From the IMG/VR virus record IMGVR_UViG_3300028840_003320: 47,403 bases of DNA. The stretch is one strand, 5' to 3'. The notes below the pieces were generated by a model. That model was not told the DNA's origin. It saw only the letters and a program-made list of their open reading frames with translations, and did not search any database. This document shows, piece after piece, positions 4,151-35,118 of the stretch (the first letter of the stretch is position 1; each line of letters opens with the position of its first letter). This stretch comes from a virus. A program made the position numbers and the translations under genes.

Positions 4151-5526
4151 TGTGCCGCCTCCACATGTCCAACCCACCCAGGATGCGGGCGAAAGTGCAG
4201 GCCAGAATGCTCCTCGAACATGTGCAGCTTGCAGAAATGATGATACAGCGGCAAGCGGAGCGGATCGAAGCCCATCAGGTGCGCTGCGAATACATCCACA
4301 GCAAGCAGATTCTCACCACCGATCAGCAGGCCAGCCAGGACCGGATCGGGCGCAAGTGGCCCGTTGCCTTCCCCGCCGATCACCCCATCGACGATCGAGA
4401 ACGTGCGCCCTTGGCATACACAGTCAAACGCCGCATAGAGATCAGCTACCATTCGCCATGTGGTATCATTCCCATACCAGTTGCCCGCGTCGAGGGCGCG
4501 CTTGTGTTCGTCCACCTTGAGCCCTAGCTTGCGTGTAGTGTGGTTATGCAGCCAATAGATAGCCTGGTGCAGCCAGTCCAGGACCGGCACCTGCCGCGCC
4601 AGAAGATGGTCATACATCCAACGCTCCAAGCCGATCAATGCCTGCTCGTGCGGTGCCCACAGCTTATCGGGGTACTGATCGCCGCCCTCACTTGGTGGTC
4701 CCAATGTGTAATGTGGCAGACAGTTCTTGTCTGTGCAGATACCCACTAGATTCTTGAGATTGAGCGTCACGCCTGCCTTTTTGTGCGTTTTCATCTTGGG
4801 CAGCGAGATCACCAAGTCGGCCTCGGGGACCGTGCGAGACAGGACATACCGATGCCGCTTGCCGCTGTGATACCCTGCCAAATCCCCACGCCAGTAGCAC
4901 GCGCCGACCATCCGATCAACCCGATCAACGTCCATCCCTGCAAAGAGGCTGTGATCCCCTAGATCGACCATCGTTGCCCCCTTCGGATCGCCGGGCAGCG
5001 GCTCCAATTGTGAGGCCAAATGCCGCCCTTTGGACCAGTAGGAGCGTAGATCAAGCAGGGTCATCATGCCGCCATAGAGGTCCGCTACTTGGGGCAACCC
5101 TGTGATGTCCATCAGCTTGGCCCAATCACAATCATACTGTGGCGCATCGGCTACGATGATCCGTCCCTCTCCCTGCAGCGCAATGTAGCAATAGTCGGCC
5201 ACTGCCCGGATCACAGACGGATGTGTGATCACCGCGTACAGATCGCCACCGCCTCGGTTTCTGTGCGCCACAAAGTTTGGCTTGAGCACGACCGTCATGC
5301 CCGGCTTGAGGAATTCCCCAAGCGGATTCCAAGCGGGCGTGTCAAAGCGGGCCTGATCGAGCCTAAGCTGATACAGCAGCCGCCGCACACCCGAATACAC
5401 GAAATTGAAGTCTAGCCCGAGCTGCCCTGGAAAGGGATACTCTGGGAAAGCCGCCAGCGGATGGTAAGGTGCTACGGTTGGATAGCCCGCCGGAATTACT
5501 CGGGTCATGACGATCTGCTCATTCAT
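4141..5526 (-). CDS. DUF362-domain protein (function unknown)
   Basis: 461 aa. The VVLKPNFV...ITHPSVIRAVADY...IIVADAP pattern is typical of DUF362. Start and stop overlap the neighbouring genes. Confidence 0.55.
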   Translation of the reverse strand: MNEQIVMTRVIPAGYPTVAPYHPLAAFPEYPFPGQLGLDFNFVYSGVRRLLYQLRLDQARFDTPAWNPLGEFLKPGMTVVLKPNFVAHRNRGGGDLYAVITHPSVIRAVADYCYIALQGEGRIIVADAPQYDCDWAKLMDITGLPQVADLYGGMMTLLDLRSYWSKGRHLASQLEPLPGDPKGATMVDLGDHSLFAGMDVDRVDRMVGACYWRGDLAGYHSGKRHRYVLSRTVPEADLVISLPKMKTHKKAGVTLNLKNLVGICTDKNCLPHYTLGPPSEGGDQYPDKLWAPHEQALIGLERWMYDHLLARQVPVLDWLHQAIYWLHNHTTRKLGLKVDEHKRALDAGNWYGNDTTWRMVADLYAAFDCVCQGRTFSIVDGVIGGEGNGPLAPDPVLAGLLIGGENLLAVDVFAAHLMGFDPLRLPLYHHFCKLHMFEEHSGLHFRPHPGWVGHVEAAQCV

Positions 5527-6781
5527 CGCGGATCACCAATCGCTGCTTGCCGCGCCGCGTGCGCCCGATGGCATCGACCTGCTCCAGTTCAAGATCAAAA
5601 CCGCTCAACTTGCGCATCAATCCCGCCCGCATTCGCACCTCGTCAGCTTGACCCACATAGAACACAGTCACCATGCCCGGTTGCATCTGCCAGAACTGGA
5701 CCGCCTGTACCCCGCGCAACGTGTCATCGTGAAAGTTGACAGCAGTCATGTAGACACGCCGGCCGTCTGCACTCTCAAGATATTCCTGTTCCCGCCCAAC
5801 AATGCGCCGCCAGACTTGCCCCTGCCGCCCACATGCCGAGCACCCCCAACCGGCAAACTCAGCCAGATCGCCGGTGCGGTAGCGGACCATCGGCGTAGCG
5901 TGCATGATGAACGACGTAGCGACAATCTCACCCACATGGCCGGGCACTGTGACAGGCTGACCGTTTTCATCGAGCAGCTCTGCATAGCCGTATTGTGGCA
6001 AAACGTGGTACGTATCGGCGCCTTCACAGTACCCGGCCAGCACCGCGCACTCATAGTGCCCGTAGTGATCGAACACCCGCCCGCCGAACACGCGCGCCAT
6101 AATCTCTTTCTGCCACGGGTACAGATTCTCCGATGCGCACAGAACGCCTTTGACCGGCAGCTCGTGCCCGGTTTCTGCCAGCCAGCAAGCAAAAGCATAG
6201 CCGGAAGAGGGATAACAGCGGATCCACTCTGGCTTGTACTCTAGCACCGCTTGATAATACCGCTCGATCCATCCCGGCGTGAGATGGTAGGAAGAGCAGC
6301 GCAGCTCGTTCAACTCGGGCACGTACTCCATGTGGTTGGGTGTGTCAATCACCAGCCCGCGCAAGGTTAGTTGCCGGTCTCCCTCTTTCCAGCCGATAGC
6401 ACGGTACAAGTGCGCCTTGCTGGCCAGCTCGCGGGCAAACGTCAGCGGATCGCGCCAGAAGCCAAATGGTTCCCCGGTTGAGCCACCTGTGGTGGTCCAG
6501 ACGCGCCCAGGGATCGGCACGGAAAAGCGCTCCACATCTGCGCGCATCGTCGCCTTATCCACCATCGGGAAGCGCCGTAGATCGTCGAGGTCGTGCAGAT
6601 CACTTGGAGAGATACCCGCCGCGTCATAGAGTTCCCGATACCCGCGCGTGTTCTCATAGGCCCAAGTGAGCGCCTTGATCACCTCAGCGCGCGCCAATGC
6701 CTCGGAATGATGGTACTCTGTCATCTCCAAGTATTGCCGCCAAGCCATATAGATTGGATTGTCGAGGTCTTTGTGTTTCAA
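5519..6781 (-). CDS. CapK / phenylacetate-CoA-ligase-like adenylate-forming enzyme
   Basis: 420 aa. It carries the AMP-binding P-loop-like motif TTGGSTGEPF, an RTGD motif (MVRYRTGDLAEF) and the PaaK/CapK/F390-synthetase family architecture. Confidence 0.75.
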   Translation of the reverse strand: MKHKDLDNPIYMAWRQYLEMTEYHHSEALARAEVIKALTWAYENTRGYRELYDAAGISPSDLHDLDDLRRFPMVDKATMRADVERFSVPIPGRVWTTTGGSTGEPFGFWRDPLTFARELASKAHLYRAIGWKEGDRQLTLRGLVIDTPNHMEYVPELNELRCSSYHLTPGWIERYYQAVLEYKPEWIRCYPSSGYAFACWLAETGHELPVKGVLCASENLYPWQKEIMARVFGGRVFDHYGHYECAVLAGYCEGADTYHVLPQYGYAELLDENGQPVTVPGHVGEIVATSFIMHATPMVRYRTGDLAEFAGWGCSACGRQGQVWRRIVGREQEYLESADGRRVYMTAVNFHDDTLRGVQAVQFWQMQPGMVTVFYVGQADEVRMRAGLMRKLSGFDLELEQVDAIGRTRRGKQRLVIRDE

Positions 6782-21124: not shown

Positions 21125-21328
21125 CTAGTGCTCTGCCATCGTGCCGAGATAGGCAAACGCCAGAATGAGCGCCAGGCCAAACACCACAGCTGCCAGCGCC
21201 CAGCTACGGCCCGCGCATCCGCCCTGCCAGCTCTCGCGGATGATCAGAGCCACGCACACGAACACATAGAGGATCATCACCCCCGCTGCTACAAGTCCTA
21301 TAGTCACCGTTGCCTCCTTTCTACCCAA
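21125..21328 (-). CDS. Small 2-TM membrane protein
   Basis: 67-aa ORF. The start may instead be the GTG at 21307, which overlaps the upstream TGA (GTGA). Confidence 0.45.
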   Translation of the reverse strand: MGRKEATVTIGLVAAGVMILYVFVCVALIIRESWQGGCAGRSWALAAVVFGLALILAFAYLGTMAEH

Positions 21329-21588
21329 CTCGGAATTGCCACTTGCCCGCGCTCAATCTGTGGGATCGTCGCACCATCGCTGGGCTCGAGGTCCACAGCC
21401 AGGCCAACAACCAAGAGCGCTTGCAAGAACCCCGCCCGGTAGAACTGAATCGCATCCTGCTGTCGAATGCTTGCAGCTCCGACTTTCTCCAATAGGTTCA
21501 ATGCTGTGCCTGTTGCCCCCAAGTGAGTAGCCGCCGCCGCGTGCAGGATATTCCCAATATCCCGCCTGAAATAGACGTCCAAACCCAT
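21304..21588 (-). CDS. Hypothetical protein
   Basis: 94-aa ORF with SD AGGAGG upstream (GATAGGAGGCATTTATG). It is the first gene downstream of element E1. Confidence 0.5.
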   Translation of the reverse strand: MGLDVYFRRDIGNILHAAAATHLGATGTALNLLEKVGAASIRQQDAIQFYRAGFLQALLVVGLAVDLEPSDGATIPQIERGQVAIPSWVERRQR

Positions 21589-21655
21589 AAATGCCTCCTA
21601 TCTGTTGAAAAGTGTTGAATCTAGCCCCCAAACAGTTGAATCATGAAGAATGAAG

Positions 21656-21778
21656 TTGACTAGACAGATAGACAGAACTAGACAGTAATTCTCTATTGAA
21701 CCCTACATGAGCGCGTAACTGGTTAATGCGGGAATTACCGTCTTTTTCTGTCTAGTGTCTACTATCTGTCTAGTTGTC
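21656..21778. repeat. Element E1: 55-nt conserved core (21686-21740) flanked by 3x TAGACAG and 3x inverted CTGTCTA/GTGTCTA
   Basis: TAGACAG occurs at 21661, 21669 and 21679. CTGTCTA occurs at 21748 and 21766, and GTGTCTA at 21755. The core is 46/55 identical to 22225-22279. The region is noncoding. Confidence 0.85.
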
Positions 21779-21806
21779 ATGATATTTTGCTCTTCCGGGT
21801 AGTCAA
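21779..21806 (-). promoter_or_regulatory. Sigma70-like promoter candidate reading leftward into E1
   Basis: Minus strand reads TTGACT (21806-21801), a 16-nt spacer, then TATCAT (21784-21779). The -35 element lies inside an 18-mer repeated at 24612-24629. Confidence 0.4.
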
Positions 21807-22039
21807 CTTATCGGAACCCGCCCTGTGCCATTGCACTCATTGCAGCGCCCTGGATTATCTGCACAAAAGTCGCACAGTCCAGAGTCATCGCATTCTGAAC
21901 AGCCATCGCCCTCACAGTTCTGACAGTCACCCGTGCCATCGCACTCGGGGCACTCTCCTGTGCCGTCGCAGTTTGTGCATACCGCCATCGGAGCTGGACC
22001 GAGTCCAGTGTCATCAAACAATATCACGTTGCGTCCCAT
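21803..22039 (-). CDS. DnaJ-type zinc-finger protein (CxxCxGxG repeats only)
   Basis: The 78-aa protein contains CTNCDGTG, CPECDGTG, CQNCEGDG, CSECDDSG and CNECNGTG. This is the signature repeat of the DnaJ cysteine-rich domain. Confidence 0.75.
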   Translation of the reverse strand: MGRNVILFDDTGLGPAPMAVCTNCDGTGECPECDGTGDCQNCEGDGCSECDDSGLCDFCADNPGRCNECNGTGRVPIS

Positions 22040-22200
22040 TTTGTTTACCTCCGCGTATCCACAATATCAGAGTCAGGGTTCATGCCAATTTCACCCCATA
22101 CGCTCCACGGACCTGCCGCCCAAGACCATGATCATACTTGCGTTGTCCAGCATCGATCCCTTTCCGCTTCAGCTCCATACTGAGCGATCTCTTGTGCTAA

Positions 22201-22313
22201 GGTACCGGTACCAGAAGGTACCACTAATTCTCCATTAAACCCTACATGAACGCCAAACTGGTTAAAGTAGAAATTACCGGTACTTATCGGTACCGGTACC
22301 CTTATCGGTACCC
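22201..22313. repeat. Element E2: 55-nt conserved core (22225-22279) flanked by clustered GGTACC hexamers
   Basis: GGTACC occurs at 22201, 22207, 22217, 22289, 22295 and 22308, with GGTACT at 22279. The core is paralogous to E1. The element begins at the primase-helicase stop codon. Confidence 0.85.
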
Positions 22314-24580
22314 TAAAGCAATTTAATTCCAAAGCAACCTCGATGTTTGACGCCACCTACCTTGCGCTGCTGTCCGGCGTCCAACCCCTTGCGTTTCAAT
22401 TCCATTGTGAGACTGCGCTTGTGCTTTGGCGTGACGCCGTTCTCCTTACACCACTCCTGGTAGGAGAGGTAAAGCGCAGAGTTGGGCACAAAGTGGCTGC
22501 CAGTTTGCACAATCTCCACACACTCTTCCAACCACTGGCCTACATAGTCCAGCTCGAGGCGCTGTGCTTGTGTGGTCTCTTCGATGCTCTTGGGCACGCG
22601 CAACCCGGTGCCCTCCTGGTTGTACCATCGGATCGCGCCTTTCACCGCCCAGGCCAGGACCGCTTGCAGGCTCTCCCGCTGCTTGAGCTGCGCTTTCAGC
22701 GTCTTATCCTCTCGCCCTGCATAGCTGTTCGGAAATTGGATCACTTTGAGCCTGTACCAAATGGCGTCGTCATCCACGTCGGCATTCACCGGATAGTTGC
22801 TGCTCAGCCAGACTTTGAATTGCGGCCGATAAGTGAAGTGGTCTTTGCGCTTGAATGCGGCGCGAATCTCATTGCCACCCGTGATGGCTTTCACGCGCGC
22901 TGTGTTCAGACTCGTGTACTTGCTAGATTCGCTGGCAGCCACAAAGCGGCAAGGCTTCAAGCCTGCCAAGTCGAAGTTTTGCGAGTCGTGGCTGCGATCC
23001 ATCGTGAAGGAAGAGAAATCCACCTCGGTGCCCATCGGTTCTTTGCCGAGCATGTGCAGGATGGTCTCAGTGAAAGAGCCCTTGCCGCTCCGGGTTGGCC
23101 CGTAGAGGTAGAACAGGCATTCTTCGGACGTATGGCCCGTGAGTGTGTACCCTATGGCCATCTGTAGAAAATCCACGAGCTGAGGATCCCCGCCGACCCA
23201 CTCAAGAATCAGGGTCCTCCACTTTGAGTGATCCGCTTCTGGATCGTATTCGATCGGTAGGCAATACGTGAAGCGCTGGCCAGGAAGATGGTCTATGAGG
23301 TCGCCTGTTCTCAGGTTCAAGACGCCGTTCTTGCAGTTCAATAAGTCGGGGAAACTGTCAAAGTCGGCAGCACGGGCCGGGACCAAGCTCTCATAGAGGT
23401 ACTTGCAGTTGCGCACGTTGGTGGCGGTAGCACGGGTTACTTTGACGATGGCCTCTCGATCGGCTTTCACTGCCTCCAAGCGCCGGCGCTGCAGGACGTC
23501 GACCACTGCACGGTCCAGGCGGCTCTCCGCCAGTTCCCGCGCCCAATGCGTTTTGCCGTGGTGCATCCACCCAAACGCCTCGACGTGCAGGAACTGACCT
23601 GGGTAGAGCGCATCGACACAGCGGGCGTTTCCCTCATCGCTGGCATCGGCGCGGAGCAGGATGCTCTCTGTGCGCGGTGTGGGCGGCTCGATGGCCGGCA
23701 CATTGCCAGGTGGGTAACGCCCAACGCTCTCAGCGATCGCCTCGACCTCTGACGATTCTAGTGGCGGCTCGCAATGTCTCTGGTTGAATGCCTCCAGACT
23801 GGGCAGCATCGTGGCTGCATCCATCCCCCGCCGGCGCATAGAGCCCGCTAGGCTGGCCAGGCGCACATTGCGCTCGCCCTGGGTGATGTGCTCGGGCAGT
23901 TCGTTTCCGTTTTGCCCTGGCTGCTCTGCACTCTCCCAGGGGTCAGCTGCTTTGTGGTGCCCATTCATCTTGAGCAGGGCGGCCAACTCGGTTGGCAACA
24001 TACCCGGCGCCTGGTCCATCGGATGGCTGCTCGCTTCCCAAGTGTAAGAGCCTTTTTCAGTTCGGCTTGGGGCTACGACGATGTATCCCCCTTCGCCGCG
24101 CGTGTCGATGCCCGGAGCGATCTTGCTGGCAGTGCTCTTGATGCCGTCGTCTGTGCGCCAGATTTTGTGAATGCCGCCCGAGGGCGTCTGCTGTTCAAGA
24201 GCCTGGCTATCGTCGATGCCGAGATTGTCCCACTCTCCTGGCCCATCCGCGCCGTTTTTCACGTCGAGGTCGACCACAGCCAGCTTTGAGCGCCCGCAAT
24301 CTACCCCGATGTTGGCCAGTGGGTGTTTCTGCCACCAGGCGCGAATGGTGCCCGGATCGCGTGTACTGTCCTTGAAACCGTTCTTGGTCAGTGGGCGCTT
24401 TTCCCCCGGCACACAGGGGAACACGTACCAACCTAGCTTAGACAGTTGCAGCGCGCTCTCACATAAGAGCATTTGCCAGCCCTGTTCGGGTGTCATCTTT
24501 GCGATCTCATCATCCGTATGGCCAAGCTCCCCCAGCTGGCGTTTTGTCTCATTGGTCAGAAAGAGCGGGATAGATGGCAC
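22313..24580 (-). CDS. Bifunctional primase-polymerase / D5-type SF3 helicase (P4 alpha-like replicase)
   Basis: It has a prim-pol N-domain (GWYVFPCVPGEKRPLTKNGFKDST...AVVDLDV), a PriCT-like motif (GERNVRLASLAGSMRRRGM...PLESSEVEAIAESV) and Walker A YLYGPTRSGKGSF. The start codon is GTG. Confidence 0.9.
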   Translation of the reverse strand: MPSIPLFLTNETKRQLGELGHTDDEIAKMTPEQGWQMLLCESALQLSKLGWYVFPCVPGEKRPLTKNGFKDSTRDPGTIRAWWQKHPLANIGVDCGRSKLAVVDLDVKNGADGPGEWDNLGIDDSQALEQQTPSGGIHKIWRTDDGIKSTASKIAPGIDTRGEGGYIVVAPSRTEKGSYTWEASSHPMDQAPGMLPTELAALLKMNGHHKAADPWESAEQPGQNGNELPEHITQGERNVRLASLAGSMRRRGMDAATMLPSLEAFNQRHCEPPLESSEVEAIAESVGRYPPGNVPAIEPPTPRTESILLRADASDEGNARCVDALYPGQFLHVEAFGWMHHGKTHWARELAESRLDRAVVDVLQRRRLEAVKADREAIVKVTRATATNVRNCKYLYESLVPARAADFDSFPDLLNCKNGVLNLRTGDLIDHLPGQRFTYCLPIEYDPEADHSKWRTLILEWVGGDPQLVDFLQMAIGYTLTGHTSEECLFYLYGPTRSGKGSFTETILHMLGKEPMGTEVDFSSFTMDRSHDSQNFDLAGLKPCRFVAASESSKYTSLNTARVKAITGGNEIRAAFKRKDHFTYRPQFKVWLSSNYPVNADVDDDAIWYRLKVIQFPNSYAGREDKTLKAQLKQRESLQAVLAWAVKGAIRWYNQEGTGLRVPKSIEETTQAQRLELDYVGQWLEECVEIVQTGSHFVPNSALYLSYQEWCKENGVTPKHKRSLTMELKRKGLDAGQQRKVGGVKHRGCFGIKLL

Positions 24581-24633
24581 GTTGTATCTCTCTTGATTCT
24601 AGGATTGCTGAGTAGTCAACTTATCGGAAGTGC

Positions 24634-25407
24634 CTATTTGACACGACACATTAGGCACGGCTGCTCTTCTGGTTCATCGCTCAAAAATGACATCTGAGCC
24701 TCGCTGTGATGCTTTGACCACCAGCGCCGCTTGATCTCTGCTCGAATCAGATGGTTATCAATCAACTGGCGCATTGTGTACCCACGCACCCACGTATACC
24801 CCCCAGCGCCCCGGCGTTTCTTTTCATCCTCTACCCAAGCCATCCATTCGGCCATTTTAGGTTGTTCCTCGATCATTTTGACCTGTAGAAAATGTGTCTT
24901 GAACGGGCAACACCCGCACGACCAGAGGCCAGTAGGCGGCAATCCGATCCGTTTTGCCTCTGCTTCAATGTCGGCCCTGGTCACACCCATCTCACGCAGG
25001 ATGTAACGCGGTTCGATCTGTGTGCCAGAATCGCCAAGATACCCTTTGCGCTCTGCCTCGTCTGCGCGCAGGCCAATATAGCTCTCGATCTGCTGGCCTC
25101 TCACGTATGCCTCAAATGGCTTGATCTTGAACATAGCCGTACACCAGCGCGCCCTATGGAATGGCAAGAACCAACTATGTGCCTCTAGTGCCTGCTCCCA
25201 GGTCGGTCCACGCAAGCGAACGATCTCCTTGCCGGTCATCTGTTCTAGTGTATCCAGCATCGCGTATGTGTGTGGATGCTCCTTGCCCGGATCGGTAAAG
25301 ACTGGCGTCACATCATCTGCGCAAATACCGCCCTTCAGATAACCTGTCAGGAACAGGTACATTATGCTACTATCGAGGCCGCCGCTCAGAGAGGCTATGT
25401 GCTTCAT
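24634..25407 (-). CDS. PAPS-reductase / PP-loop ATPase family protein
   Basis: PP-loop SLSGGLDSS, RWCTAMFKIKP and IGLRADEAERKG are characteristic of the PAPS_reduct/DndC-like family. Confidence 0.75.
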   Translation of the reverse strand: MKHIASLSGGLDSSIMYLFLTGYLKGGICADDVTPVFTDPGKEHPHTYAMLDTLEQMTGKEIVRLRGPTWEQALEAHSWFLPFHRARWCTAMFKIKPFEAYVRGQQIESYIGLRADEAERKGYLGDSGTQIEPRYILREMGVTRADIEAEAKRIGLPPTGLWSCGCCPFKTHFLQVKMIEEQPKMAEWMAWVEDEKKRRGAGGYTWVRGYTMRQLIDNHLIRAEIKRRWWSKHHSEAQMSFLSDEPEEQPCLMCRVK

Positions 25408-26310: not shown

Positions 26311-27123
26311 CTATACCCACCTCTCGGTAAAGCTATCGTCTCCATACTGCCAACTGGTGACGAGGGTCTGGCCGCGACTGTTCACAATGTCCTCCCACTG
26401 GAGGATGCTTGAGACCACAAAGCGCCCCAGCTGCTCTACACCGTTACAGAGAATGTAGCCACAGCGGAGCGGGGGCCGCCAAACATTGCTTGCTTGGAAC
26501 ACCTGAGAATCTGTGAGACTTTGGTGCTTGCCCACGCTGGCCGCGAGCTGCAATCCTGCATCGTACTTGCGACGTTTCAGCGGGTCGGAGAGCACCTGGT
26601 ATGCCTCATTGATGCGCTTGAACTGCTCTTCGGCACCATCCTCTTTGCACACGTCCGGGTGCCACTGGCGTGCGCACTTGCGATAAGCACTCTTGAGATC
26701 GGCCACATTGGCACTCTGCTTGATGCCCAGGACCGCATAGAGCGTGGTCTGCTCTTCCGGCTTGTCTGGATCGATGGCAAACCACTCTTTCAAGACACTT
26801 TCAGGAAAGATGACGGTCCACCCACCATTACACCAGCCGCTTGCCGTCCTCTGCCCACCTGCACGCTCTTTTGCCGCGCCGATGTACTTGACCTGCAAAA
26901 GCTGTGTGGTATTGACGGCTATACTCTGGACTTGTGGCACCTGTGGCCGCTTGCCTAGATACTGCTCGGCAAGGTCGGCCAGAGTATTGGCATGCTGTGG
27001 GGCTACCATCCAGAGCTTCTGATCCCGGTCCCAACGCCGATCACTGTAGGGGATTGCCGTCTTGAGCGCAGCCACCAGACCAGCATCGTAGGGCGATTTA
27101 AAGCCGATCGTGCCATCTTTCAT
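26311..27123 (-). CDS. J-domain (DnaJ/Hsp40 co-chaperone-like) protein
   Basis: TLYAVLGIKQSANVADLKSAYRKCARQWHPDVCKEDGAEEQFKRINEAYQVLSDPLKRRKYD is a canonical J domain with the HPD motif. The start is ambiguous: ATG 27123, or GTG 27159/27171. Confidence 0.85.
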   Translation of the reverse strand: MKDGTIGFKSPYDAGLVAALKTAIPYSDRRWDRDQKLWMVAPQHANTLADLAEQYLGKRPQVPQVQSIAVNTTQLLQVKYIGAAKERAGGQRTASGWCNGGWTVIFPESVLKEWFAIDPDKPEEQTTLYAVLGIKQSANVADLKSAYRKCARQWHPDVCKEDGAEEQFKRINEAYQVLSDPLKRRKYDAGLQLAASVGKHQSLTDSQVFQASNVWRPPLRCGYILCNGVEQLGRFVVSSILQWEDIVNSRGQTLVTSWQYGDDSFTERWV

Positions 27124-27155
27124 CGGGATCAGGCGGCTGCTCTGTTGGTGAGAGA

Positions 27156-27365
27156 TCACATAGTAAGCCACTGGTGGATCCTCTCTGCAAGCGTCCGGGC
27201 GTGCTCTGCCACCTGCTCTGCTTGCGTCTTCCATCCGCGCCACTGTGCCAGCGCTTCGACGGTCATCTTTTCGCCCTGCTGTCTTTGCGCGCTTCGGAGA
27301 ATCTCGACCTGCCCCCGGTCAATCCTGACTTGGGTTGAATCGGAAAGGGTAATGTCTGTGGTCAT
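27156..27365 (-). CDS. Hypothetical protein
   Basis: 69-aa ORF tiled between neighbouring genes. Confidence 0.4.
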   Translation of the reverse strand: MTTDITLSDSTQVRIDRGQVEILRSAQRQQGEKMTVEALAQWRGWKTQAEQVAEHARTLAERIHQWLTM

Positions 27366-34134: not shown

Positions 34135-35118
34135 GTGCGCCTGTCAGCAGCCATCGACGGTTTCTTGCTCACCAAGCAAGTTGCAGGGCTCTCACCTAAC
34201 ACCTTGCGCAACTACACCCATAGTTTAGATCGCTTTGCCGGTTTCCTCGACGACGATCTCCAACTCGCAGAGATCACCAAAGCCGACCTGCAGCGGTTCA
34301 TGGTCTGGCTGATGACCGCTCAATTTCCCTCCCAAAAGTTCGGCACACGAGGGCCACAAACGCTCTCAGCCAAGACAGTGCGCAACGTCCACACTTGCTT
34401 GTGCTCTCTCTGGACCTGGGCGATCAAGGAAGGCTACACAACAGAGCACATCCCCAAACAGGTAGAAGCCCCACGACCAGAGCCGCCCGAGATCGTACCA
34501 TTCACCAAGGAACAGATCAGAGACCTTCTGGAAGCCGCACGCTTTAGCCGCCCCTGGGCAGGCCGCCGCTTCACACAAACAGAGCTGCCCAAAGAGCAGT
34601 ACTTGAGAGATAAGGCGATCATTCTCTTCCTGCTAGACACTGGCGTGCGTGCAAGCGAACTGTGCCAACTCGTGGTCGGCGATCTCGACCTACAAACAGG
34701 TACAGCGACAGTCCAGAGCAAAGGCCGCCGAAACGCCGGCCAGGGGAAACGGCGAACCGTTCACTTTGAGACACGCACCAAGAAAGCGCTCTGGCAGTAT
34801 TTAGCGCATCGGGCAGTCTTGGGCCAGGATATAGAGCCGCTCTTTTGCACGCGCGCTGGTGATCCGATGACCCGTGAGAACCTGCGCGGGCACCTGCACA
34901 AAATCGGCAAGCGGGCCAATGTTAATGGCGTCTATCCACATAGATTCCGCCATACCTTTGCCATCCAGTACTTGAGGAATGGGGGGGATCTGTTCACACT
35001 TCAAAGGCTCTTGGGACACTCGGCTATAGAATCGACCCGCCGCTATCTGCACATCGCACAAGCAGATCTCGAGATCGCACATCAGCGAGCCAGCCCGGTA
35101 GACAATTGGCGGCTGTGA
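34135..35118 (+). CDS. int: Tyrosine recombinase / phage integrase (XerC/D-like)
   Basis: It has an N-terminal SAM-like core-binding domain. The catalytic residues fit R...HxxR...Y (TGVRASEL; HRFRHTFAIQYL; LLGHSAIESTRRYLH). The start is GTG after GGAGG. Confidence 0.93.
   Translation: MRLSAAIDGFLLTKQVAGLSPNTLRNYTHSLDRFAGFLDDDLQLAEITKADLQRFMVWLMTAQFPSQKFGTRGPQTLSAKTVRNVHTCLCSLWTWAIKEGYTTEHIPKQVEAPRPEPPEIVPFTKEQIRDLLEAARFSRPWAGRRFTQTELPKEQYLRDKAIILFLLDTGVRASELCQLVVGDLDLQTGTATVQSKGRRNAGQGKRRTVHFETRTKKALWQYLAHRAVLGQDIEPLFCTRAGDPMTRENLRGHLHKIGKRANVNGVYPHRFRHTFAIQYLRNGGDLFTLQRLLGHSAIESTRRYLHIAQADLEIAHQRASPVDNWRL

Follow-up and report, generated by a model that had tools for sequence, protein, structure and literature searches.

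Probable Origins of Primase-Helicases with a Predicted C-Terminal Winged Helix

The replication origins of the staphylococcal pathogenicity islands (SaPIs) lie immediately after rep and contain 6–12 penta- or hexanucleotide iterons; at least two of these stand on each side of an AT-rich centre, and the two sides point in opposite directions (PMC9371898). The Rep C-terminal domain reads these iterons with its winged helix, the iterons vary from island to island, and one such initiator, PriRep5, is a fused primase-helicase (PMC9371898). The origin of the archaeal plasmid pRN1, whose function was proven directly by genetics, is a stem-loop of about 100 bp (21-nt stem, 58-nt loop) downstream of a Prim-Pol/superfamily 3 (SF3) helicase/winged-helix gene, and its authors noted similar structures after the corresponding bacteriophage gene (PMC4234260, PMC2777425). 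Here, two elements, E1 and E2, are described in IMG/VR virus record IMGVR_UViG_3300028840_003320 (the whole stretch of 47,403 nt is called the window), where they follow a primase-helicase gene. Both are likely to be replication origins such as serve self-loading enzymes in which a Prim-Pol or primase domain is joined to an SF3 helicase and, at the C-terminus, a winged helix.

In phage P4, one iteron type occurs in two separated cis elements, ori and the cis-replication region (crr), which act together, and the primase domain of the initiator is DnaG-like. The origins of SV40, polyoma and papilloma viruses are served by SF3 initiators and carry short words inverted around a melted centre, on which two hexamers load; unlike the present case, they have eukaryotic hosts, and their origin-binding domains are of an unrelated kind. 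The P4 alpha protein also has a winged-helix domain (PMC2777425).

Anatomy of E1 and E2

All genes around E1 and E2 lie on the minus strand, so "gene sense" denotes the minus strand in the following. In each element, an AT-rich core of about 60 nt is flanked by three short repeats on one side and by three or four inverted copies on the other (Table 1), giving 3 + 3 TAGACAG/CTGTCTA iterons in E1 and 4 + 3 GGTAC(C/T) iterons in E2. The cores (21683–21740 and 22222–22279) are direct repeats with 83% identity, 539 nt apart; a preliminary description of this DNA had already recognised the pair from the letters. The central 28-mer core pattern matches only these two cores in the window, even at 3 mismatches, and none of 100 shuffles contained any match.

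A repeat scan also bore out the two arrays as first described, that is, TAGACAG array, core and inverted array in E1, and GGTACC array, core and GGTAC(C/T) array in E2. Five of the seven TAGACAG matches in the window fall within E1 (plus strand at 21661, 21669 and 21679; minus strand at 21748 and 21766), where a variant GTGTCTA is also found at 21756. Likewise, six of the seven GGTACC matches fall within E2 (22201, 22207, 22217, 22289, 22295 and 22307), together with a GGTACT at 22279. The outermost E2 repeat (22307–22312) abuts the stop codon of the primase-helicase gene (22313–22315). A generic scan for at least two direct copies of a word, a gap of 25–90 nt and at least two inverted copies returned only E1 and E2 in all 47.4 kb. 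The G+C content of the cores is 40% (E1) and 36% (E2) vs. 57% for the window, a feature absent from the preliminary description, whose 74-aa open reading frame over E2 found no support. GGTACC is palindromic; in relatives of E2 with a non-palindromic word, GGTAAC stands on one side and GTTACC on the other, i.e., in opposite orientation.

The Primase-Helicase and Its Predicted Winged Helix

The gene next to E2 codes for a protein that matches Pfam and PHROGs families over its primase and helicase parts (Table 1), and it has 431 homologues at E ≤ 1e-30, its relatives being plentiful in metagenomes. When the C-terminal 84 aa were searched by sequence in the PDB, only chance matches and nothing significant came up, so that a fold search was needed. 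The AlphaFold2 model of the last 135 aa is confident, with a predicted local distance difference test (pLDDT) score of 88 and a helix–helix–hairpin topology, i.e., that of a winged helix, ending in a β-hairpin. The best Foldseek matches of this model are RFX DNA-binding domains, with a template modelling (TM) score of 0.72–0.74 on the target, followed by the C-terminus of the African swine fever virus (ASFV) PrimPol primase-helicase and then by archaeal Orc1/Cdc6. The RFX domain contacts DNA via both its recognition helix and its wing (PMC2777425), and such contacts by the wing would fit a specificity that changes with the wing, as described below.

A Family of Elements with Exchangeable Repeats

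The family was surveyed with eight close relatives (53–86% identity) and 80 further loci (45–68% identity over the C-terminal 330 aa), in which exact 6-mers were searched for from −30 to +270 nt of the primase-helicase stop codon. An element built like E1 and E2 was present in this zone in 49 of the 73 non-redundant relatives, compared with 4 of 348 control stretches of 300 nt inside the gene. The close relatives have one such element each, either directly after the primase stop codon or after a gene for a 3′-phosphoadenosine 5′-phosphosulfate (PAPS) reductase (loci L005 and L008). The repeat word varies even among these: GGTACC in L008 and L009, GGTAAC/GTTACC in L003, L005 and L006, GGTTAC/GTAACC in L012, CATGACA/TGTCATG in L010 and TAGACA(C/G) in L013. 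At least 20 repeat words occur in the family, most of the form xxACx, with two to four iterons per side in opposite orientation across the core. The preliminary description had argued from E1 and E2 that arms which are replaced while their symmetry is kept point to selection on architecture; this was right and holds throughout the family.

The cores of the family on average measure 59.6 ± 8 nt, contain 36% G+C vs. 51% for the loci and are T-rich on the gene-sense strand. Close relatives share the core sequence CTCATG(T)AGG, and an oriented motif CAT[AG]..[AG]G[GA] was not supported family-wide (13 forward vs. 11 reverse among 50 cores). A blastn search of 21300–24600 against 50,697 phage records gave no match, the exact core pattern had no match in IMG/VR, and a search with the primase in IMG/VR returned only two distant loci. 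Most relatives carry a single element, the exceptions being L083 and L078.

In a soil clade (L076 4490–4540, L083 7515–7560, L089 4510–4550), the primase stop codon is separated from the origin-type element by a terminator-like hairpin, in whose stem one copy of the iteron of that locus pairs with an inverted copy. A T-run follows, and a conserved box, AACC(S)GCTTGTGAAGCC, adjoins the hairpin.

Covariation of the Repeat Word and the Wing

Among close relatives, the helix before the wing (HKRSLTMELKRKG) hardly varies, and the wing differs with the iteron. Tails of the type ..GQNQKG[VI]xG[IV]RMI go with GGTAAC (L003, L005 and L006), tails of the type ..K.RGCFG[IV].. with GGTACC (the window, L008 and L009), and the tail ..GKQIRGVYGVEML with TAGACA (L013). 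Across 45 non-redundant loci, iteron distances are correlated with those computed from the final 28 residues of the enzyme (Mantel r = 0.33). This correlation persists after controlling for the roughly 50–90 residues directly upstream (partial r = 0.31; 0/5000 permutations), and the reverse partial correlation, with the body tested and the tail controlled, is r = −0.04, showing that the body adds nothing. Two tail motifs illustrate the pairing, namely, G.N.[KR]G with GTAAC (counts 6/0/2/36, p = 4e-6) and [KR]Q.R[GA] with GAC[AG] (counts 9/2/6/27, p = 3e-4), where both p-values are descriptive only. Specificity appears to reside mainly in the β-hairpin wing, in the last ~20 residues, with wing and iterons changing together.

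A Live and a Leftover Putative Specificity Module

The window holds a second 3′ end of a primase-helicase gene, absent from the preliminary description, between E2 and a small Cys-rich gene. Its translation is a second copy of the recognition helix and wing with nothing upstream, and its DNA shows 71% nucleotide identity to the live 3′ end (22371–22425). The live tail, which adjoins E2, ends in ..RGCFGIKLL and is of the GGTACC type; its end ..RKVGGVKHRGCFGIKLL resembles the tails of L008 and L009, both of which go with GGTACC. The end of the leftover tail, ..GRQVRGAYGVKLA, instead resembles the L013 tail of the TAGACA type, and L013 is its best match among all tails of the family (67.5% over 40 aa, E 3e-16). 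It belongs to the GAC[AG] class and lies, in gene sense, upstream of E1 with its TAGACAG repeats, a word shared with the single element of L013, which abuts the L013 primase stop codon. The apparent pairing of wing and iteron seen in the family thus fits both modules of the window, i.e., live tail with E2 and leftover tail with E1. No other intact winged-helix tail, of the TAGACA type or any other, is encoded anywhere in the window.

The duplicated unit spans about 227 nt (22199–22425), starting at the His codon in the helix and ending with the last E2 repeat, and the leftover tail starts 4 nt after E2. DNA alignment of the window with L008 runs to the end of the primase gene, whereas alignment with L003 or L013 ends ~60–70 nt before the stop codon, which is consistent with the two-module picture. 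E2 is 82% identical to the single element of L008 over 114 nt. However, over its central 35 nt the E1 core shows 97% identity to that of L008 and is thereby closer to it than the E2 core is, so that a simple history in which E2 came from an L008-like donor is insufficient.

A second, truncated C-terminus of the primase-helicase, of ~190–205 aa and with its reading frame kept, was also observed in two soil relatives, L083 (6938–7695) and L078 (about 5350–6140). After each truncated copy comes a further origin-type element, whose iteron differs from the first, GACAGA in L083 and GTGAGAGGAG in L078. The copy in L083 is a 188-aa open reading frame, 52% identical to residues 622–808 of its own primase, and the copies in L083 and L078 are nearly identical to each other except for the tail. 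The arrangement of a truncated tail with an origin-type element of its own thus recurs.

Comparison with Described Origins

The features of SaPI Rep-type origins found here are the position 3′ of the gene, the number and orientation of the iterons, the AT-rich centre and an SF3 enzyme with a predicted C-terminal winged helix. As in the SaPIs, the element follows the helicase gene, the AT-rich centre is enclosed between opposed iterons, and the enzyme is a fused primase-helicase, as is PriRep5. The differences are that the present carrier is a 47-kb temperate tailed phage from metagenomes rather than a satellite, that its primase domain is a Prim-Pol, and that the centre has a conserved sequence in close relatives and not AT-richness alone. 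In addition, one genome here has two modules of different specificity, one of them with a dead binding domain.

The enzyme has the same domain order as pRN1 ORF904, the element is likewise downstream, and in both cases the sequence is poorly conserved and the architecture is conserved. The geometry is also almost identical, with arms of ~25–34 nt and cores of ~56–62 nt here vs. the 21-nt stem and 58-nt loop of pRN1. In contrast to pRN1, where no iterons were recognised, the arms here are arrays of one short word, as read from the sequence. As in P4 alpha, one polypeptide unites a primase, an SF3 helicase and a C-terminal winged helix for putative origin binding, and the probable origin likewise contains short repeated sites. 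The P4 system differs in its DnaG-like primase; here, moreover, there are two elements with different iterons, and relatives need only one.

Proposed Mechanism and Alternative Explanations

A replication origin of a known kind is the best reading of E1 and E2, since the layout is that documented for SaPI Rep origins and resembles the stem-loop of the pRN1 origin. If the enzyme works like SaPI Rep and pRN1 ORF904, its C-terminal winged helix would bind the 6–7-nt iterons, which flank the ~60-bp AT-rich core and point opposite ways on its two sides. Two helicase assemblies would thereby be placed on either side of the core, which would then be melted and primed. The genome would carry two wing-plus-origin modules in tandem, i.e., the live GGTACC wing with E2, and the dead TAGACA helix and wing, an inserted Cys-rich gene and E1. 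The most likely history would be a recombination event that exchanged or added a cassette of ~227 nt comprising helix, wing and origin (22199–22425). Given a GGTACC-type live tail beside E2 and a TAGACA-type leftover tail upstream of E1, the cognate, working origin of the present enzyme is probably E2. On balance, E1 would then be the origin of a replaced specificity module, an orphan with no intact cognate binding domain in the genome.

Several points weigh against these assignments. The tail motifs were chosen after viewing the same data and the loci are phylogenetically related, which makes their p-values descriptive. Wing and iterons lie less than 150 nt apart, and linkage, i.e., co-inheritance, could therefore yield part of the covariation; the control in the partial Mantel test uses sequence only ~100 nt further off. 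The E-values of the Foldseek matches are weak (2e-3), and the P4 alpha origin-binding domain is not among the matches listed. About a third of the relatives gave no array with exact 6-mers. The GC skew, which is uniformly negative and follows transcription, has no switch at 21–22 kb and is uninformative. E1 shows no decay, all six of its iterons being intact, and may still be in use. Finally, E2 is L008-like overall (82%), yet the centre of the E1 core is nearly identical to that of L008.

If the elements acted as RNA, the long hairpin with the core at its apex would be a leader, a processing site, a terminator or a small RNA. They do lie inside a minus-strand transcription unit, with a promoter-like site reading into E1, and on both strands the complete elements outperform shuffles in folding by a wide margin (z −3.4 to −7.0). 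However, this strong fold arises because the arms are built of repeated words; the cores alone fold no better than shuffles (z −1.8, +0.45, −0.8 and +0.56), and the core is AT-rich and strand-asymmetric, not base-paired. Stems made of two to four copies of one short word are unneeded for a helix, and the repeat word tracks the protein tail. The sole terminator-like match depends on the GGTACC palindrome and is lost in GGTAAC-type relatives. Rfam gave no match at the gathering threshold over the whole window, which agrees with the initial remark that the core matches no known RNA family and, together with the poor folding of the cores, leaves the structured leader or small RNA put forward at the same time without support, making an RNA function highly unlikely. 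Transcriptional control, by operator arrays around a promoter or antitermination site with dedicated repressors (parC- or nut/put-like), would suit the position of E1 just upstream of the next gene block, the adjoining promoter-like site and the conserved TTCAAC repeat block after E1. Across ~75 relatives, however, the element stays with the 3′ end of the primase-helicase gene and not with a particular downstream operon, and the second copies in L083 and L078 follow a truncated primase copy. No conserved −35/−10 pair is visible in the cores, and no regulator that might bind the repeats changes in step with them; the 94-aa protein encoded downstream matches no DNA-binding family and is too divergent to be informative. 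A promoter or antitermination element gated by two repeat-binding proteins, as envisaged in the preliminary description, is thus quite unlikely. Hallmarks of a nut/put-type site would be a conserved RNA hairpin or boxes after an early promoter and a cognate antiterminator; here, there is no Rfam match and no fold signal in the core, and no systematic search for an antiterminator gene was made. The TTGACT-16-TATCAT site said there to fire into E1 does exist and reads into E1, but it is located on the minus strand (21806→21779, 10/12 matches).

The similarity of the cores, their common orientation, their spacing of 539 nt and the neighbouring P4-alpha-like gene would also suit a two-part origin, in which E1 and E2 jointly act as the ori and cis-replication region of one replicase. 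Since the repeats of E1 and E2 differ, however, they would be read by different proteins; the iteron type of E1 fits the dead tail fragment and not the live protein, no second intact winged-helix tail is present in the window, and nearly all relatives have one element. Such a joint origin is therefore very improbable, and P4 ori/crr is a looser match than a SaPI-type origin, as E1 and E2 share no iteron. Of the replication element suggested at the outset for the adjacent P4-alpha-like replicase, the evidence thus favours the replication function and not the bipartite ori/crr form. The elements could also be direct repeats on either side of the zinc-finger gene that mark the boundaries of a mobile or recombining cassette, or else an attachment site. 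The direct repeats, 83% identical, do bracket a small gene that is absent at this place in relatives, and the phage encodes RecT, an exonuclease and an integrase. However, relatives without the Cys-rich gene still carry the element, which follows the primase gene in all relatives, and the integrase gene is 12 kb off (34135–35118). The repeated unit includes a piece of the primase gene, which argues for duplication or replacement of a module rather than a transposed cassette, and a boundary or attachment site is extremely unlikely.

With E1 and E2 taken as origins, the intact iterons of E1 and the recurring second modules with open reading frames in L083 and L078 leave room for a different role of E1. 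It is conceivable, if rather unlikely, that E1 is kept as a working site of foreign specificity, to be replicated by co-infecting TAGACA-type relatives or to soak up their replicase, which would resemble an inbuilt form of the decoy resistance that cloned phage origins are known to give. The same tentative reading holds that a protein–DNA code may be readable in the family, with the wing set against the variable bases around the invariant AC of the iteron, and that new origin specificities may arise by the swap of ~230-nt cassettes of helix, wing and origin.

Elements of this kind are already known, and the wing–iteron series and the live/dead pair are useful without being surprising to a specialist. 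The elements give a probable replication origin to a large group of temperate phages that are uncultivated and whose replication module had otherwise been just a list of genes, and they extend the SaPI/pRN1 origin layout across many metagenomic primase-helicase genes. The pairing of at least 20 iteron words with wings constitutes a data set for learning how this winged helix reads DNA, and also for predicting among which phages or satellites origins are interchangeable. The tandem of a live and a dead module would be a snapshot of the replacement of origin specificity.

Neighbouring Genes and the Phage

The window represents a temperate tailed phage with genes for terminase, portal, head morphogenesis protein, tape measure, tail fibre and integrase, and it also encodes RecT, an exonuclease and a Dam-like methylase. 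Four matches in a genome collection fall in metagenome bins of four different groups (Gammaproteobacteria, Anaerolineales, Saccharibacteria and Chloroflexia), so that no single host group is indicated. In gene sense, the order is primase-helicase, E2, leftover tail, Cys-rich gene, promoter-like site, E1, TTCAAC block and 94-aa gene (Table 1). The two elements do bracket a small zinc-finger gene just after the primase-helicase gene, as originally stated.

Table 1. Features of the origin region, listed in gene sense; positions are those of the window.
Feature	Position	Strand	Description
Primase-helicase gene, 755 aa	22313..24580	-	Prim-Pol, PriCT_1, D5_N, DUF5906 (SF3 helicase), Pox_D5 C-terminal region; Pfam and PHROGs matches
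Live primase-helicase tail, last 36 codons and stop	22313..22423	-	Predicted recognition helix HKRSLTMELKRKG and β-hairpin wing LDAGQQRKVGGVKHRGCFGIKLL; type found with GGTACC repeats
E2, putative cognate origin	22201..22312	-	Gene sense: GGTACC x3 and GGTACT (22279-22312), core 22223-22278, GGTACC x3 (22201-22222)
Leftover second primase-helicase 3′ end, 38 codons and stop, 117 nt	22080..22196	-	No upstream gene; translation HKRSLSMELKRKGIDAGQRKYDHGLGRQVRGAYGVKLA, then stop
Cys-rich gene, 78 aa	21803..22039	-	CxxCxGxG-like units almost throughout; inserted between leftover tail and E1; not part of the putative origin
Promoter-like TTGACT-16-TATCAT	21779..21806	-	Reads into E1 and downstream genes; 10/12 consensus matches, consensus match only
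E1, second origin-type element, other specificity	21661..21772	-	Gene sense: TAGACAG, TAGACAC, TAGACAG (21748-21772), core 21686-21747, CTGTCTA x3 (21661-21685)
TTCAAC repeat block and G-run	21590..21655	-	Between E1 and next gene
First gene after origin region, 94 aa	21304..21588	-	MGLDVYFRRD...; conserved in close relatives; no family match

The 78-aa Cys-rich protein has no Pfam or PHROG match, and its gene is absent at this position in all relatives examined. It is reminiscent of the zinc-finger region of DnaJ, and a DnaJ-domain protein is encoded at 26311–27243. A second promoter-like site, TTGGCA-16-TATTGT with an upstream TG (22061–22088, minus strand), lies inside the dead tail, just upstream of the Cys-rich gene, and is a consensus match only. 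The TTCAAC block consists of four or five repeats around a TTT(T)GGGGG run; it is also found in L003 (8420–8480) and L008 (5625–5690), and its conservation among close relatives does not depend on the iteron type. The block may serve the downstream genes as an operator or leader.

The PAPS-reductase-like gene is upstream of the primase-helicase gene in the window (24634–25407, minus strand), and it lies between the primase-helicase gene and the origin in L005 (8292–9014) and L008 (4759–5478). Judging from these positions, it is apparently a movable gene within the replication module.

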